The notes beneath the pieces are model-generated. The model did not search any database and was not told the DNA's origin. It saw only the letters and a list, made by a program, of their open reading frames with translations. From the IMG/VR virus record IMGVR_UViG_2531839131_000010: 7,418 nt of DNA; one strand, given 5' to 3'. This document shows, one piece after another, positions 1 through 7,418 of the stretch; the first letter of the stretch is position 1; the number at the start of each line of letters is the position of its first letter. The stretch is from a virus (Duplodnaviria; Heunggongvirae; Uroviricota; Caudoviricetes). Both the position numbers and the translations under genes were made by a program.

Positions 1-3000
1 GTAATTATCATCTGCGCGGGCGCATTCTGCAGGTGCCGTCGAACTATAACCCGCAGACGCGGCAATACAGCGGTATCTGGGACGGAACGTTTAAGCCAGC
101 ATACAGCAACAACATGGCCTGGTGTCTGTGGGATATGCTGACCCATCCGCGCTACGGCATGGGGAAACGTCTTGGTGCGGCGGATGTGGACAAATGGGCG
201 CTGTATGTCATCGGCCAGTACTGCGACCAGTCAGTACCGGACGGCTTTGGCGGCACGGAGCCGCGCATCACCTGTAATGCGTATCTGACCACACAGCGCA
301 AGGCGTGGGATGTGCTCAGTGATTTCTGCTCGGCGATGCGCTGTATGCCGGTATGGAACGGGCAGACGCTGACGTTCGTGCAGGACCGACCCTCGGATAA
401 GGTGTGGACCTATAACCGCAGTAATGTGGTGATGCCGGATGATGGCGCGCCGTTCCGCTACAGCTTCAGCGCCCTGAAAGACCGCCATAATGCCGTTGAG
501 GTGAACTGGATTGACCCGAACAACGGCTGGGAGACGGCGACAGAGCTTGTTGAAGATACGCAGGCCATTGCCCGTTACGGTCGTAACGTCACGAAGATGG
601 ATGCCTTTGGCTGTACCAGCCGGGGGCAGGCGCACCGCGCCGGGCTGTGGCTGATTAAAACAGAACTGCTGGAAACGCAGACCGTGGACTTCAGCGTGGG
701 CGCAGAAGGGCTTCGCCATGTACCGGGTGATGTTATTGAAATCTGCGATGATGACTATGCCGGTATCAGCACCGGTGGGCGCGTGCTGGCGGTGAACAGC
801 CGGACCCGGACGCTGACGCTCGACCGTGAAATCACGCTGCCATCCTCCGGTACCACGCTGATAAGTCTGGTTGACGGAAGTGGTAATCCGGTCAGCGTGG
901 AGGTTCAGTCCGTCACCGACGGACTTAAGGTGAAAGTGAACCGGGTTCCTGATGGCGTTGCAGAATACAGTGTGTGGGGGCTGAAGTTGCCGACGTTGCG
1001 TCAGCGCCTGTTCCGCTGTGTGAGTATCCGTGAGAACGATGACGGCACGTATGCCATCACTGCCGTGCAGCATGTACCGGAAAAAGAAGCCATCGTGGAT
1101 AACGGGGCGCACTTTGACGGCGACCAGAGCAGCACGGTGAATGGTGTCACGCCGCCAGCGGTGCAGCACCTGACCGCCGAAGTCACCGCAGACAGCGGGG
1201 AATATCAGGTGCTGGCGCGCTGGGACACGCCGAAGGTGGTGAAGGGCGTGAGCTTCCTGCTCCGTCTGACCGTAACAGCGGATGACGGCAGTGAGCGGCT
1301 GGTCAGCACGGCCCGGACGACGGAAACCACATACCGCTTCACGCAACTGGCGCTGGGGAACTACAGGCTGACAGTCCGGGCGGTAAATGCGTGGGGACAG
1401 CAGGGCGATCCTGCCACCACCACCTTCCGGATTAACGCACCTGCAAAACCCGCCACCATTGAGCTGACGCCGGGGTATTTTCAGATAACGGCGGTCCCGC
1501 GTCTTGCGGTGTATGACCCGACGGTACAGTTTGAATTCTGGTTCTCAGAAAAACGCATCACGAACACAGCACAGGTGGAAAAATCTGCCCGTTATCTGGG
1601 GACAGGCAGTCAGTGGACTGTCCAGGGGAGCCGGATTAAGCCGGGGACGGATTTCTGGTTTTACGTGCGAAGCGTCAACCTGGTGGGAAAATCTGCTTTT
1701 GTGGAAGCCAGCGGGCAGCCCAGCAATGATGGTGAAGGGTATCTGGAAATTTTCCGGGGGCTGATAGATGAGACGCTTCTTGGTCAGGCACTGAAAGAGC
1801 GCATTGATGCTTCAGCGCTGCGTACGGAGGTCACGCAACTGGAAGAAGACATCCGTCAGCGGATGGACACGGATATCGCAGAAGTGACCCGGAAAATCGG
1901 GAAGGCGGAAAACACTCTCACGCAGCTGGTTGCGAAAAAGAATGAGGACCAGGCACTGGCCATCGCGCAGGTGAACCAGAAAGTGGACCGGGTGAGCAGT
2001 GAAATCTCACAGACTGTCAGCCAGGGGCAGTCAGAAAACGCCCGACAGATAGCACAGGTCCGCCAGTACGTGGATAAAAAAGGGAGTGAAATTACCTCGA
2101 CCACGGATAAAAAGCTGGGTGACCAGGCCGTGACCATACAGCAAATCCAGCGGGTTCAGTCAGACACGCGCAATGAGCTGAATGCCATGTATATGCTGAA
2201 GGTGCAGAAAACAAAAAACGGTATTCCCTATGTGGCTGGGATTGGCGCGGGGATTGAGGATGTTGATGGTCAGACGCTGAGCAGTATTCTGCTGCAGGCT
2301 GACCGTATCGCGATGATTACCCCGGAGAACGGCAACACCACGCCGCTGTTTGTGGCGCAGGGGAATCAGCTGTTCATGAACGACGTGTTCCTGAAGCGAC
2401 TGTTTGCGGTGAGCATCACGTCATCCGGTAATCCTCCGGCATTTTCCCTGACACCGGACGGGCGGCTGACGGCGAGAAATGCTGATATCAGCGGTAACGT
2501 TAATGCGAATTCTGGGACGCTCAACAACGTCACGATTAATCAGAACTGCCGGATCCTTGGAAAACTGTCAGCCAGCCATATTGAAGGCGATATTGTCAAA
2601 ACGGTGGGTAAGGCTTTCCCGCGAAATGGAAGTTATGCCAGTGGCACGATAACCGTCACGGTTTATGATGATCAGGGATTCGACCGGCAGATTATCATTC
2701 CGCCGGTATTATTTCGTGGTACGAAACACCAGAATTTCAACAGTCATAACCAACAGTCATACTGGTATTCAACCTGTAAGCTGCAGGTACTGAAGAACGG
2801 ACAGGAAATCTTTCAGCAACCCGCGACGGATGTCAGCAGGGTATTTTCATCCGTCATTGATATGCCTGCCGGACACGGCCATGTCACCCTGACTTTCAAT
2901 GTTTCTTCATATGGTGCTAATAACTGGACGCCAACGACCAGTATCAGCGACCTTCTTGTTATTGTGATGAAGAAATCTACAGCCGGTATCAGTATCAGTT

Positions 3001-3002
3001 GA
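1..3002 (+). CDS. J: Tail tip / central tail fibre host-specificity protein, lambda J family (5'-truncated by the window edge; reading frame enters at nt 3)
   Basis: The frame is open from nt 3 to the TGA at 3000-3002; the GTG at 33 in the ORF track is internal, not the true start. The translation ([76 protein letters not shown]...) matches my recollection of phage lambda gpJ almost residue for residue over the first ~560 codons, including the fibronectin-III-like segment ([21 protein letters not shown]...[17 protein letters not shown]). A second conserved block (YVAGIG...[18 protein letters not shown]...[37 protein letters not shown]) follows a divergent coiled-coil segment, and the C-terminal ~150 residues diverge from lambda J. 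Confidence 0.95.
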
Positions 3003-3069: not shown

Positions 3070-3669
3070 ATGCGTAAATTATGTGCTGTTATTCTGTCCG
3101 CAGTAGTCTGGCTGGTTGCCGCTGGTACGCCAGCGAGCGCAGCAGAACATCAGTCCACGCTGAGCGCGGGGTATCTTCATGCCCGTACGAACGCTCCCGG
3201 TAGTGATGATCTGAACGGGATTAACGTGAAATACCGTTATGAGTTTACGGACATGCTGGGTGTTGTGACGTCATTCAGTTATGCCAATGCCAAAGATGAG
3301 CAAAAAACGCATTACAGCGATACCCGCTGGCATGAGGATTCCGTGCGTAACCGCGGGTTCAGTGTGATGGCGGGGCCGTCTGTTCGCGTGAATGAATGGT
3401 TCAGCGCGTATGCGATGGCGGGTATGGCTTACAGCCGTGTGTCGACTTTCTCCGGGGATTATATCCGCGTAACTGACAACAAGGGGAAAACGCACGATGT
3501 GCTGACCGGAAGTGATGACGGTCGCCACAGCAACACGTCTCTGGCGTGGGGAGCTGGCGTGCAGTTTAACCCGACCGAATCCGTGGCCATTGATATTGCT
3601 TATGAAGTCTCCGGCAGTGGCGACTGGCGCACTGACGGTTTCATCGTGGGTGTCGGTTATAAGTTCTGA
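3070..3669 (+). CDS. lom: Lom/Ail-family outer-membrane beta-barrel protein (prophage-encoded, virulence-associated)
   Basis: 199-codon ORF with a GAGAGG Shine-Dalgarno 5 nt upstream of the ATG. N-terminal signal peptide MRKLCAVILSAVVWLVAAGTPASAAE. The C-terminus ...SGSGDWRTDGFIVGVGYKF matches lambda Lom as I recall it, with internal Lom-like blocks (GINVKYRYEFTD, SVMAGP, SAYAMAG) and a terminal aromatic residue typical of outer-membrane beta-barrels. Same position as lom in lambda, between J and stf. Confidence 0.93.
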   Translation: MRKLCAVILSAVVWLVAAGTPASAAEHQSTLSAGYLHARTNAPGSDDLNGINVKYRYEFTDMLGVVTSFSYANAKDEQKTHYSDTRWHEDSVRNRGFSVMAGPSVRVNEWFSAYAMAGMAYSRVSTFSGDYIRVTDNKGKTHDVLTGSDDGRHSNTSLAWGAGVQFNPTESVAIDIAYEVSGSGDWRTDGFIVGVGYKF

Positions 3670-3700
3670 TTAGCCAGGTAACACAGTGTTATGACAGCAT

Positions 3701-3726
3701 GCCTGTTCAATCAGGCGGGCTTTTTT
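3701..3726 (+). terminator. Possible weak rho-independent terminator after lom
   Basis: Short hairpin GCCTG (3701-3705), loop TTCAAT, CAGGC (3712-3716), then GGGC and TTTTTT (3721-3726). The stem is only 5 bp and separated from the T-tract by 4 nt, so this is tentative. Confidence 0.3.
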
Positions 3727-3737
3727 GTGGGGTGAAT

Positions 3738-6700
3738 ATGGCAGTAAAGATTTCAGGTGTACTGAAAGATGGGGCGGGTAAACCTGTCGTAAATTGTGCG
3801 ATTGAACTGCGGGCCAGAAGAACCAGCCCGACCGTTGTGGCGCACGTTGTCGCCACTTGTGTGACGGACAATAACGGTGCTTATGTGATTGAGGCTGAGC
3901 CGGGGTATTACGAGGTTGCGCTTCACCGTAACGGCTGGCAGCCAACCCGTGTCGGGGATATTTATGTGGCACCGACTGATGCACCGGGGACACTGAATGC
4001 GTTTCTGGATGCACCAAAGGATAGTGATTTACGTCCGGAGGTGATGAAGCGCTTTGAGGAAATGGTGGATGCGGTTGCCCGGCAGTCGGAGCAGGTCACC
4101 AATGATCGTGAAAGGGCAGAGGCGGTAGCGGAGGCAGCAACAAACGCAGCGAACTCTGCTCTTGACAGTAAAAATAAGGCAGAAGATCTAAAAAATAAGG
4201 CACAGCAAAATGCCGAAGCCGCTGCAGAAAGCGAACGACAGGCCGGGCAACATGTCGCTGATGCGCAGAAGATTAAGGGTGATTGCCAGACGCTGGCGGA
4301 TAACGTACAGCAGAATGCAGAATCCGTTGCCGAAGATAAAAAGCAGGTGGCACAGCTGGCATCATCTGCCACACAGGATGCGGCCCGCGCAGAGCAGGCT
4401 GTCAAGGATGCTGACTCGATAGTCCGGAAAGCGGTCGATAAACTCGGTGAAGCTGCAACGCTGACCGGCGAGGCAAAAGCCAGCGCCGAAGCGGCAGCAA
4501 AAAGCGAACAGAACGCGAAACAGCACAGGGACGAGGCGCAACGGATAGTTGATGACCTGAAGGGAAGCAATGCTTCCACGACAGAAAAAGGCCTGGTGCA
4601 ACTCTGTAGTGATACGGACAACGACAGCGAAGAACTGGCAGCCACACCGAAGGCCGTCAAAACCGTCATGGACGAGACGAAAACAAAAGCGCCGCTGGAC
4701 AGCCCGGCATTCACCGGCACGCCCACCACACCAACCCCACCGGACGATGCTGCCGGTCTGGAAACAGCGAACGCGGCATTTGTCCGCAAACTGCTCGCTG
4801 CACTGGTTGACTCGTCACCGGAAGCCCTGGACACGCTGAACGAGCTGGCAGCGGCGCTGGGAAATGACCCGAATTTTGCGACGACAGTCACCAAAGCACT
4901 GGCAGGTAAACAGCCACTCAGTGACGTGTTAACCGCAATCAGTAATCTGGAAGAACGGGCAGATAATCTTCTGTGCTTTAATCAGGACGGAAATGCTTCA
5001 CTGTCTCCACTGTCAGAAAAAGCCCGGTCACTGCTGGCACAGGCCACAGTGGAAGCTATGCGCAATGAGCTTGAGCTGAAAAGCGCAGCGGTAATGGATA
5101 TTCAGACAGACATTCACGACAGCACGAAAGGCCGCATTGCGCTTCCCGGTGCGTATGGTTACGGAATGACGGACGCCGGAGCGCGTTCAATTATTGCCAG
5201 CGATATGGCGACTGTAGCCAGAACCGCTCACAACCTGCACCCGGGACGCTATTACACCTTTGCCACACGAACGGAAGAAACAACCGGGATAACAGAAATT
5301 ATCTGGCTGGATAATGGCCGGGCCGACAAAACCAGCCAGACAGCAACAAAGCTGGTTCTGTTTTTTGGAAAAGACGGACGGATTCTTATGACCGTTCGTG
5401 GCGATAATATCTCCGCCCCGGTCACCTGGACGAATCTGACGCCACAACTTGGCAATGCAGCACAGAAGGATGCGCAGGAGAATATTTACGACCGCACCGA
5501 AGGCCGTCTGGCGATTCCCGGCATGTTTGGATTCGGGAAAGTATTTTTCATCGGCGACAGGACCGAGTTTAAAACAGAGGCCGATTTTCTCCGCTGGGTA
5601 AAAACGGCAAATCCCGGACGCTATGCCGTTTATGCAGATACAAATGCGGTAATACAGGGCGTGCTGTTCAAGGGTACCGTTGAAATTATCTGGCCGGAAC
5701 CTCAAATCAGCCATGATACGGCATATGTGGCCAAAATCATTATTTTTTACGGTATTAACGGTCATATTTATTACAATCGCTACTGGACTACCGGAGGTGG
5801 TTATCTGGTTGGCTGGGAAAACCTGAAGGTTGATGAGGCTTCACTCCGGGCACTGATTGAAACCCGCGCGCCACTGAACAGTCCGGCACTGACCGGAACG
5901 CCGTCCACGCCAACACCACCGGATGATGCAGCAGGTAATGAAATAGCCAATGCGGCGTTTGTCCGCAAACTGCTCGCCGCACTGGTTGGCTCATCACCGG
6001 AAGCCCTGGACACGCTGAACGAGCTGGCAGCGGCACTGGGCAATGACCCGAACTTTGCGACAACCGTCACTAATGCACTGGCAGGTAAACAGCCGCTTAA
6101 CGATATGTTAACGGCTATCAGCAAGGCAGGGGTGGGACAAAACTCTCTCCTTTATTTTGGTGATAACTTTAAAGCAAAAGCAATTCCATGCAGCAACAAG
6201 GCTCGCTCATTACTGGCACGAAACACGCCTGAAGCCATGCGCACGGAGCTTGAACTGAAAGCGGCTGCGACGATGGAACCCCAGAGCGATATCCGCGACC
6301 GCACACCGGGCAGACTGGCACTGTCCGGCATGCATGGATTCGGTCAGGCATTCACCAGTGCCGACGCTCTGACATTTAACGGGCAGGCCGATTTTGTTGA
6401 ATGGCTGAAAAAGGCCGCCCCGGGGCGTTATGCGGTCAGTATTGCGGACTCTTCCATGCTGCTGGTTGGCACCAAGAAATTTAACGGCACCATTGATGTG
6501 ATGTGGTCGCCCTTTGATAACGATGAGTCAGACACAATACGTAAATTCAAAACGCTGCTGTGTTTTAACCAGTATTACGAAGGTGAGCACAGTATTCATC
6601 GCCTGACTTACCGCTGGAGTGGAAACAACTGGAATGCAACAGTAAGCCCTGTCATTTACGACGGCGATTCGCTGGCGTTCTTACTGTCCCGGACAGCAGG

Positions 6701-6998
6701 CTCAGGCTCATATTTCAAATACCCGGCAGTGGGTGTTCCAGTGCTGGCTGTTTATCGCGGAACAACTTTCGGGGATAAAGAAATCAATATTGGCCTGGGT
6801 GATGTGGTGCAGGGGTCACAACTGGGCGGAGTTAATCTTTCGTGCTTAATATCTTCTCCTGGGGTTGGCTCCTACAATTCCGCACCGAGTGCAGGAGCTA
6901 CAGGGTACACTTTCCCGGGGCGTTATATGGCGCTATCCGGGGTCAGGGACTCTAAAGGAATAACCGGTCGTATCTGCCTGTTTGTGCGCATCGAGTAA
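3738..6998 (+). CDS. stf: Side tail fibre protein (lambda Stf family N-terminus; long mosaic fibre with duplicated collar segments and repeated distal domains)
   Basis: Open frame from 3699 to the TAA at 6996-6998. I place the start at the ATG at 3738 because the product then begins MAVKISGVLKDGAGKPV..., matching the lambda Stf N-terminus (MAVKISGVLKDG...) as I recall it, and a G-rich SD-like element (GGGGTG) lies just upstream. The ATG at 3699 sits inside the putative lom terminator hairpin. An Ala/Glu/Lys/Gln-rich coiled-coil shaft follows, then the conserved phage tail fibre segment SPA(F/L)TGTP(T/S)TPTPPDDAAG...ANAAFV...LDTLNELAAALGNDPNFATTVT.ALAGKQP, present twice. Confidence 0.9.
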   Translation: MAVKISGVLKDGAGKPVVNCAIELRARRTSPTVVAHVVATCVTDNNGAYVIEAEPGYYEVALHRNGWQPTRVGDIYVAPTDAPGTLNAFLDAPKDSDLRPEVMKRFEEMVDAVARQSEQVTNDRERAEAVAEAATNAANSALDSKNKAEDLKNKAQQNAEAAAESERQAGQHVADAQKIKGDCQTLADNVQQNAESVAEDKKQVAQLASSATQDAARAEQAVKDADSIVRKAVDKLGEAATLTGEAKASAEAAAKSEQNAKQHRDEAQRIVDDLKGSNASTTEKGLVQLCSDTDNDSEELAATPKAVKTVMDETKTKAPLDSPAFTGTPTTPTPPDDAAGLETANAAFVRKLLAALVDSSPEALDTLNELAAALGNDPNFATTVTKALAGKQPLSDVLTAISNLEERADNLLCFNQDGNASLSPLSEKARSLLAQATVEAMRNELELKSAAVMDIQTDIHDSTKGRIALPGAYGYGMTDAGARSIIASDMATVARTAHNLHPGRYYTFATRTEETTGITEIIWLDNGRADKTSQTATKLVLFFGKDGRILMTVRGDNISAPVTWTNLTPQLGNAAQKDAQENIYDRTEGRLAIPGMFGFGKVFFIGDRTEFKTEADFLRWVKTANPGRYAVYADTNAVIQGVLFKGTVEIIWPEPQISHDTAYVAKIIIFYGINGHIYYNRYWTTGGGYLVGWENLKVDEASLRALIETRAPLNSPALTGTPSTPTPPDDAAGNEIANAAFVRKLLAALVGSSPEALDTLNELAAALGNDPNFATTVTNALAGKQPLNDMLTAISKAGVGQNSLLYFGDNFKAKAIPCSNKARSLLARNTPEAMRTELELKAAATMEPQSDIRDRTPGRLALSGMHGFGQAFTSADALTFNGQADFVEWLKKAAPGRYAVSIADSSMLLVGTKKFNGTIDVMWSPFDNDESDTIRKFKTLLCFNQYYEGEHSIHRLTYRWSGNNWNATVSPVIYDGDSLAFLLSRTAGSGSYFKYPAVGVPVLAVYRGTTFGDKEINIGLGDVVQGSQLGGVNLSCLISSPGVGSYNSAPSAGATGYTFPGRYMALSGVRDSKGITGRICLFVRIE
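4686..4943 (+). repeat. Intragenic direct repeat, copy A (86-codon tail fibre collar segment inside stf)
   Basis: Encodes KAPLDSPAFTGTPTTPTPPDDAAGLETANAAFVRKLLAALVDSSPEALDTLNELAAALGNDPNFATTVTKALAGKQPLSDVLTAIS. It recurs 1179 nt downstream with about 10 amino-acid differences out of 86 by my count, and near-identical nucleotide runs such as ccggaagccctggacacgctgaacgagctggcagcgg. Confidence 0.9.
5865..6122 (+). repeat. Intragenic direct repeat, copy B (86-codon tail fibre collar segment inside stf)
   Basis: Encodes RAPLNSPALTGTPSTPTPPDDAAGNEIANAAFVRKLLAALVGSSPEALDTLNELAAALGNDPNFATTVTNALAGKQPLNDMLTAIS. Same frame and orientation as copy A, offset exactly 1179 nt (393 codons). Confidence 0.9.
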
Positions 6999-7011: not shown

Positions 7012-7418
7012 ATGAAAATCAGAGCGGTAAAGGGCATCAGAAACGCCCATTATCTTGAAAATGGTGCGGTTGACTGCGAGGTGTTATTTGAAGGTGAAAC
7101 GGAATTCGTCCCGTATACCGCCATGCAGGATGATACCGCACCGACAGGCCAGCGCATCTGGGAAGAGTTGCAGAACGGCAAATGGGGCGAAATCGCCCCT
7201 TTCACTGTCACGCCGGAACTTATCGCCGCGGCGAAGGATGCCAAAAAGCAGGAAATCGAGGCATGGCGCACAGAACAGGAAGCACTGCCGTTCACCTTTG
7301 AATGGAACGGTCGCACCTGGAACGCTGGCCCCGACTCAATGGCCCGTCTTTATCCGGTAGTAATGGCGGCGAAATCCGATACGGCACGAACCGCCCTTGC
7401 ATGGGGTGATGCCGATAA
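7012..7418 (+). CDS. Putative tail fibre assembly / chaperone-like protein (3'-truncated by the window edge); function inferred mainly from position
   Basis: ATG at 7012 is preceded by GGGGAA (7000-7005) with a 6-nt spacer and lies only 13 nt after the stf stop, suggesting translational coupling. The frame stays open to the window end (MKIRAVKGIRNAHYLENGAVDCEVLFEGETEFVPYTAMQDD...FEWNGRTWNAGPDSMARLYPVV...). It is absent from the ORF track only because no stop falls inside the window. It occupies the tfa slot of the lambda J-lom-stf-tfa order. The sequence does not resemble lambda Tfa at the N-terminus, so the family assignment is uncertain. Confidence 0.5.
   Translation, partial: MKIRAVKGIRNAHYLENGAVDCEVLFEGETEFVPYTAMQDDTAPTGQRIWEELQNGKWGEIAPFTVTPELIAAAKDAKKQEIEAWRTEQEALPFTFEWNGRTWNAGPDSMARLYPVVMAAKSDTARTALAWGDAD

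Follow-up and report, generated by a model that had tools for sequence, protein, structure and literature searches.

Gene J opens the 7,418-nucleotide stretch of DNA analysed here (the window; IMG/VR record IMGVR_UViG_2531839131_000010, Caudoviricetes). It encodes the central tail fibre, or tip attachment protein, and occupies nucleotides (nt) 3..3002 of the plus strand, where frame 3 is open for 999 codons and closes with a stop at 3000-3002. The parts of J described below, stf, and the open reading frame at the right end also lie on this strand. The 5' end of J is beyond the left edge of the window: the visible protein aligns from residue 235 of lambda J, and a full-length protein of ~1233 amino acids (aa) is predicted, provided that the missing N-terminus is lambda-like. 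Our analysis points, with a probability of about 0.62, to a functional recombinant J of the lambda family, assembled from three modules, which would combine a coiled-coil shaft expanded in repeated units with a LamB-binding tip of the phage 21 type.

Domain organization of the window J protein

By its sequence, the window J belongs to the lambda J family, and every defining feature of the family that is testable in the window is present. Five Pfam domains, Phage-tail_3, Ig_J, Ig_J_second, Phage_Tail_Tip, and Ig_GpJ_C, follow each other in the lambda order, each with a score that exceeds its curated cut-off, and the PHROG match is 'central tail fiber J'. Solved gpJ chains are matched at E = 2e-96 (8iyk), E = 8e-98 (8xck), and E = 5e-144 (9wca), and BLASTP aligns the protein with lambda J at 88% over 622 aa and 53% over 297 aa. 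The succession of domains, from the hub to the Ig-like receptor-binding domain, is that of lambda gpJ (NP_040600; 8IYK, 8XCG-8XCK), and the gene context is also of the lambda type, with J followed by lom and then by the side tail fibre gene stf. The allele is common and already annotated as J; it is instructive rather than surprising.

The hub and the first fibronectin type III (FNIII) domain form a lambda-like module (nt 3..1442) that is 98% identical to lambda J over aa 1-376 and 95% over aa 377-480. The second FNIII domain (nt 1443..1736; aa 481-578) begins a module resembling that of phage PhiR49_2, to which it is 99% identical, as compared to 68% for lambda and 70% for phage 21. It leads into an α-helical shaft (nt 1737..2180; aa 579-726), the counterpart of lambda residues 813-861, which is marked by predicted helices and a hydrophobic period; measured over aa 579-735, its identity to lambda is 34% across 56 alignable residues. 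The central straight fibre, a β-prism (nt 2181..2600; aa 727-866), overlaps the Phage_Tail_Tip match (aa 712-839) and, over aa 736-866, is 69% identical to lambda, 91% to PhiR49_2, 89% to WGPS8 and phi330, and 73% to phage 21. The protein ends in a receptor-binding domain of the phage 21 type (nt 2601..2999; aa 867-999; Ig_GpJ_C at aa 877-999), which shares 45% of 128 aligned residues with lambda and has a 5-residue insertion, NQQSYW.

An earlier note on this DNA had described a helical segment longer than that of lambda, followed by a conserved block at about nt 2230-2560 and a C-terminus divergent from lambda. These three elements were found: the shaft measures ~153 residues against 53 in lambda, with a single 101-residue insertion, the block corresponds to the β-prism fibre with its Phage_Tail_Tip match, and the last 133 residues are only 45% identical to those of lambda. 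The extent of the lambda-like part had been overestimated at ~560 codons, as near-identity stops at about codon 470, ahead of the second FNIII domain. Similarly, the description of an otherwise lambda-like tail tip is accurate through the first FNIII domain only. From the second FNIII domain through the shaft to the upper fibre, the protein derives from another lineage, with DNA 99-100% identical to that of PhiR49_2.

Mosaic composition of gene J

The mosaic was mapped by sliding-window DNA identity. From nt 3 to ~1400, identity to lambda stays at 96-99% except near nt 860-1080, where it sinks to 86-92%; phage 21, N96, and PhiR49_2 score at a broadly similar level. Past nt ~1400, identity to lambda drops to 86% and then 78%, placing a breakpoint at about nt 1400-1440. 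Between nt ~1440 and 2430, most sliding windows are 99-100% identical to PhiR49_2, with a few at 91-97%, whereas lambda ranges from 53 to 82%. The match to PhiR49_2 falls to 72-77% past nt ~2430, which locates a recombination junction at about nt 2430-2480. Finally, identity to phages 21 and 1W is 99-100% over nt ~2750-3002, with a breakpoint near nt 2750. On DNA identity, J is a mosaic of three modules: the hub and the first FNIII domain resemble lambda, the following FNIII domain, the shaft, and the upper fibre resemble PhiR49_2, and the tip resembles phage 21. Within the tip domain, a patch of ~135 nt (nt 2613-2747) has only 67-84% DNA identity to phage 21 between flanks of 90-100%, while its protein sequence is nearly unchanged; this pattern suggests either a further small recombination or an older lineage.

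The middle module has its closest relatives in the J proteins of PhiR49_2 and PhiR40_1 (PV340570 and PV340560, respectively), whose shaft is 98% identical to that of the window over 157 aa, with values of 99% for the second FNIII domain and 91% for the upper fibre. Their tip is of another type, 62% identical to the window's, and lacks the NQQSYW insertion. An NCBI protein from E. coli P0299917.7 contains exactly the C-terminal 519 residues. The whole combination of modules is absent from the complete E. coli genomes and phage records searched, where full-length matches to nt 1740-3002 reach 85% at most. Among complete genomes, E. coli O178:H19 strain 2012C-4431 (locus L003, 3651-7263) has the shaft and tip together closest to those of the window, at 85% in DNA and 89% in protein. 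Its J is annotated as a frameshifted pseudogene; therefore, some long-shaft J genes sit in decaying prophages.

The helical shaft and its insertion

In lambda, the α-helical shaft (residues 809-861) lies between the FNIII domains and the β-prism 'central straight fibre', and it flips when the protein binds LamB: residues 809-840 turn into a shorter helix, residues 841-861 form two β-strands atop the prism, and the far end of the receptor-binding domain, 29.7 nm away from the FNIII domains before binding, ends up at 13.2 nm (PMC11101478). Relative to lambda, the window J contains an insertion of 101 codons (nt 1818..2120; aa 606-706), which MAFFT and HMMER both place at the boundary of lambda residues 839/840, the point where HMMER splits its gpJ match. 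The insertion falls precisely between the upper helix of lambda and the strand-forming segment 841-861. The stretch from the E-x-YL motif to YVAGIG measures 165 aa in the window, 92 in phage 21, WGPS8, and phi330, and 64 in lambda and 434. Aligned over 157 aa, the shaft region shows no gaps against either PhiR49_2, at 98% identity, or the E. coli N96 prophage, at 66%.

A monomer model predicted from the single sequence with AlphaFold2 (AF2) contains two helices in this region, aa 577-590 and aa 592-729. The second is continuous for 138 residues, with block-mean predicted local distance difference test (pLDDT) values of 56-77; in the fibre and tip of the same model, pLDDT is below 50. A single chain is unable to form the β-prism, and 3-4 of the sequences available for an alignment cover the insert. 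Core hydrophobic residues of the shaft recur with a period of 3.65. In the resting virion, three J chains would form a trimeric coiled coil ~15 nm longer than that of lambda, since a coiled coil rises by ~0.15 nm per residue and the insertion comprises 101 residues. The extra length most likely extends the resting central fibre by this amount, which would place the tip domain further from the tail tube.

A repeated 29-residue unit

The shaft resembles itself at a lag of 29 residues (z = 5.9) and again at a lag of 58 (z = 4.1). In the 29-residue register it is divided into units U0 (nt 1875-1961), U1 (nt 1962-2048), U2 (nt 2049-2135), and U3 (nt 2136-2222), the last of which lies across the junction between shaft and β-prism and is the sole unit present in lambda. 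U1 and U2 are related to each other at z = 7.9, a value reached in 0/2000 shuffles, and U3 is related to lambda residues 841-870 at z = 8.3. Phage 21 J (UMO75436, 1160 aa) has one 29-residue unit besides the junction unit, as compared to four units in total in the window. This extra unit matches U2 at z = 10.1 and U1 at z = 6.5, and across phage 21 and WGPS8 the relationship of the extra unit to U1 and U2 spans z = 4.9-10.1. A distant relative among representatives chosen at 50% identity, P0122, carries seven units in register (lag 29, z = 15.4). The counts are thus four for the window, two for phage 21 and WGPS8, one for lambda, and seven for P0122. On this register and lag evidence, the extra shaft length is a copy-number expansion of a 29-residue helical unit of ~8 turns, and not a foreign domain. 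No description of the unit architecture or of the 1-2-4-7 series was found in the literature searched, and these are the sole new element of this J.

The choice of register matters. With a register starting at 'ALAIAQV', the junction unit seemed unrelated to the others (z = 1.3 and -0.7), and only the register that starts at 'IAEV/IAQV/IQQI', together with the lag analysis, ties it to the rest. The idea that the insert consists of plain copies of the lambda switch segment was also considered and found no statistical support in pairwise unit tests. Tandem Repeats Finder detected no array in the DNA of the shaft, because the units are too diverged in nucleotides. A profile of 17 units from 6 related proteins has Ala at position 2 in 16/17 and a conserved block at positions 13-19 that covers all helix faces.

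Among the 50%-identity representatives, local alignment shows the linker from the second FNIII domain to the prism to be most often 84 aa (n = 21) or 56 aa (n = 13) long; two representatives have 157 aa, and single ones have linkers of 110, 134, 142, 217, 237, 255 and more residues. The linker of the window J has 157 residues, as compared to 84 in phage 21. The N-terminal shaft helix itself varies in length by 11-15 residues among J proteins, with ~15 residues added in the window. The representative with a 134-residue linker (P0130, with a J of the phage 21 type) contains 'QQIQKVQVDTNNNL' twice, with prism sequence between the two copies; this seems to be an internal duplication of ~50 residues across the shaft/prism junction, either genuine or an assembly artefact.

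Constraint and prevalence of the long shaft

We compared the 303-nt insert between the window, the O178:H19 prophage, and the N96 prophage. The ratio of nonsynonymous to synonymous substitution rates (dN/dS) is 0.19-0.30, with no indels at a dS of up to ~1, and by these values the insert is under purifying selection. The insert DNA is present in 771/5,426 complete E. coli genomes (~14%), in 614 of them at >=95% identity; ST131 strains are among the insert-bearing genomes, as is E2348/69, at 75%. Only 2 of 50,697 phage records contain it, PhiR40_1 and PhiR49_2, both of which are plaque-forming phages. The long-shaft allele is common in prophages, occurs in viable phages, and is rare in those that have been cultured. 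PhiR40_1 and PhiR49_2 were plated on the natural isolate ECOR13 and not on K-12 or C (locus L002, 2601-6299).

The receptor-binding tip

The tip domain (133 aa) is 95% identical, without gaps, to J residues 1028-1160 of phage 21 and to phage 1W. Identity is 77% to WGPS8, N96, and phi330, 62% to PhiR49_2, 45% to lambda, and 43% to 434. Between the window and phage 21, dS is 0.52 and dN 0.027, for a dN/dS of 0.05; the protein sequence of the tip has therefore been held constant as its DNA drifted. The native receptor of phage 21 is LamB (PMC11336670, PMC12803456), and this phage gains the use of OmpC through the J substitution I1025T and of OmpF through further changes in J (PMC11336670). The equivalent positions of the window protein, aa 864/865, are Ile-Val, the ancestral state found at I1025/V1026 of phage 21. 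Because the tip is 95% identical to that of a phage whose native receptor is LamB, LamB is the most economical prediction, and the window tip probably binds this receptor, as lambda does despite 45% identity. The earlier note had read the divergent C-terminus as a sign of altered receptor specificity. That step is not borne out by the match to phage 21, and what stands of its interpretation is the anatomy of a long helix, a conserved block, and a C-terminus unlike lambda's. No receptor data for long-shaft phages were found in the literature searched.

Shaft length and tip type occur in several combinations. The phage 21-type tip is found with one unit in 1W, two in phage 21, and four in the window; the WGPS8-type tip is found with two units in WGPS8 and phi330 and with four in N96; and PhiR49_2 combines four units with a third type of tip. 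Since the two properties assort independently, shaft length is separate from receptor choice, and it would be a tuning parameter of its own, setting reach or stroke. A structure deposited as 'A8 gpJ 713' (PDB 9wca/9wcb) has a tip of the WGPS8/N96 type fused to the lambda gpJ713 frame; this tip is ~77% identical to that of the window, as estimated through the WGPS8/N96 match and not computed directly. No paper describing 9wca was found in the literature searched.

A model for the extended shaft

In the model we favour, the tip would bind LamB, as in phage 21, and the shaft would then have to collapse to let the tube come into contact with the outer membrane. The likeliest route would be that of lambda, in which the unit adjoining the β-prism converts to strands. 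The extra units would either convert too, in the manner of the F-type pyocins, or fold back as helices, like the upper helix of lambda.

Several points weigh against this reading of J as a functional, unit-expanded, LamB-binding recombinant. None of the length steps is an exact multiple of 29: phage 21 is at +28 relative to lambda, the window is at +73 relative to phage 21, and a further step measures +98. U3 has no significant pairwise similarity to U0-U2, and the count of one unit in lambda comes from the register and lag analysis for this reason. The trimeric coiled coil is deduced from a monomer AF2 model of moderate confidence and from the hydrophobic periodicity. At the tip, seven of the 133 residues differ between the window and phage 21, one substitution opens the use of OmpC in phage 21, and LamB is extrapolated to the window from that phage. 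In addition, the window does not reach the N-terminal 234 residues of J, which hold FNIII-A and the first hub domains.

The fate of the extra units bears on a further reading, which would extend the favoured one and does not exclude it. All four units (~116 residues) may be stored-energy material for a fold switch, passing from coiled coil to β-prism on a seed provided by the existing prism, so that the stroke, or the energy that is released, would depend on how many units there are; we regard this as a real possibility, though it falls short of even odds. The precedent is the F7 pyocin fibre, where a 163-residue coiled coil refolds into β-prism and blocking the switch abolishes killing (He et al. 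2026 preprint, PMC12874032). Similar switches were predicted in 21/24 siphophage fibres, but the same authors state that lambda lacks an extensive one (PMC12874032). F-type pyocin central fibres (F7, PMC12874032; F2, PMC13455828, PDB 25vf) have an extended helical shaft between FNIII domains and β-prism, as is predicted for the window J. In the window, an N-terminal helix of 46-55 residues that need not switch (20-60 residues in the published scheme), the units as a putative coiled coil, and the prism seed would follow one another as in that scheme. The homology is distant: HMMER relates the shaft/prism junction to the F2 pyocin fibre at E = 5e-5 with the prism included and at 0.44 for the shaft region alone. 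In lambda, the homologue of the first half of U3 does turn into strands, and 29 residues would accommodate two 11-residue strands and two turns. Composition points the same way, with 26% Thr+Val+Ile and a Chou-Fasman P-beta of 1.01 in the units and 23% and 0.99 in the F2 pyocin fragment, as compared to 8% and 0.89 in the lambda shaft and 12% and 0.88 in a coiled coil of the window side fibre, although these propensity scales are soft evidence. Ala at unit position 2 is conserved, and the conservation of positions 13-19 on all helix faces exceeds what a plain spacer requires, but the profile behind it draws on just six related proteins. On the other side, the SxSxxMxxLxS motif of the pyocin switch is not enriched in the window, with 2 strict matches, both in U3, against 1.76 expected (P = 0.52), whereas the F2 pyocin control has 6 where 2.4 would be expected (P = 0.02). 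Where the motif calls for a small residue, the units often have Gln, Lys, or Arg, and Gln at such a position blocked the F7 switch (PMC12874032). The stricter form of this reading, in which the units are quantised helix-to-strand 'spring' modules whose copy number (1, 2, 4, 7) sets both fibre shortening and energy release, we put forward only tentatively.

Other explanations address the tip, the surface of the shaft, or its very function. A receptor unlike lambda's, such as OmpC, OmpF, or FhuA, would suit a tip so distant from those of lambda and 434, and phi330, with its 77%-identical tip, fails to infect an ompC deletion (PMC12502783). That study left J and side fibres unseparated, however, and in Ur-lambda it is the side fibres that bind OmpC (PMC12617516). 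Phage 21 does acquire OmpC through a single J substitution, and its tip differs from the window's at seven positions, but I864/V865 retain the ancestral state and the low dN/dS of a tip shared with a LamB phage makes a non-lambda receptor rather unlikely. The extended shaft could instead be the place where side fibres or some other virion protein dock, since the long central-fibre shaft of the F2 pyocin carries three side fibres (PMC13455828); the unusually long side fibre (1099 aa) encoded just downstream of J and the conserved surface block of the units, which could serve as a binding site, would fit this idea. Docking in F2 uses a distinct shaft insertion domain (PMC13455828), which the window J lacks: its AF2 helix runs uninterrupted over aa 592-729, and no extra Pfam domain appears between Ig_J_second and Phage_Tail_Tip. 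The window side fibre also has the standard lambda-type attachment domain, and in PhiR49_2 this shaft goes together with a side fibre of only 687 aa, which leaves a docking role very unlikely. A neutral repeat polymorphism, or a J that is a decaying prophage remnant, is very unlikely too. Tandem repeats do expand and contract readily, many E. coli J genes are fragmented or frameshifted (2012C-4431 is an example), and many database entries are partial. Against this stand the intact frame of 999 codons, the dN/dS of the insert and the exact retention of its length between lineages, the grouping of linker lengths into few discrete classes, and the two plaque-forming phages with this shaft.

How receptor binding leads to tail opening in non-contractile tails is under active study, with a small change described in lambda and a very large one in F-type pyocins. 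The window allele combines a pyocin-sized shaft of countable units with an otherwise lambda-type protein and a tip whose receptor is known in phage 21; unlike F-type pyocin fibres, it bears an Ig-like receptor domain of its own. Phages 1W and 21 and the window form a natural series of one, two, and four units with the same tip. If the spring reading is true, the family would be a ready-made series for testing the pyocin fold switch on a tractable lambda chassis. The tip also carries a caution for receptor prediction, as a J C-terminus unlike lambda's can still be a LamB binder.

Genes downstream of J

J is followed by lom (nt 3070-3669), which encodes a full-length Ail_Lom protein, and by stf (nt 3699-6998), the side tail fibre gene of 1099 codons with a Pfam phage_tail_N match. 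An open reading frame at nt 7012-7418, of which 135 codons are visible, runs off the right end of the window and matches Pfam DUF4376 (E = 1e-6); a DUF4376-type gene also sits after stf in related E. coli prophages. Because the phage_tail_N match starts at aa 14, the real start of stf is probably the ATG at nt 3738 (MAVKISGVLKDG). The Stf of Ur-lambda has 774 aa. In the window protein, aa 328-552 and aa 721-954 form an internal duplication, with 129/225 residues identical in a Biopython local alignment, and a module of ~120 residues is present in three copies (aa 459-580, 583-709, and 852-956). The side fibre looks as if two distal fibre modules had been joined in series.

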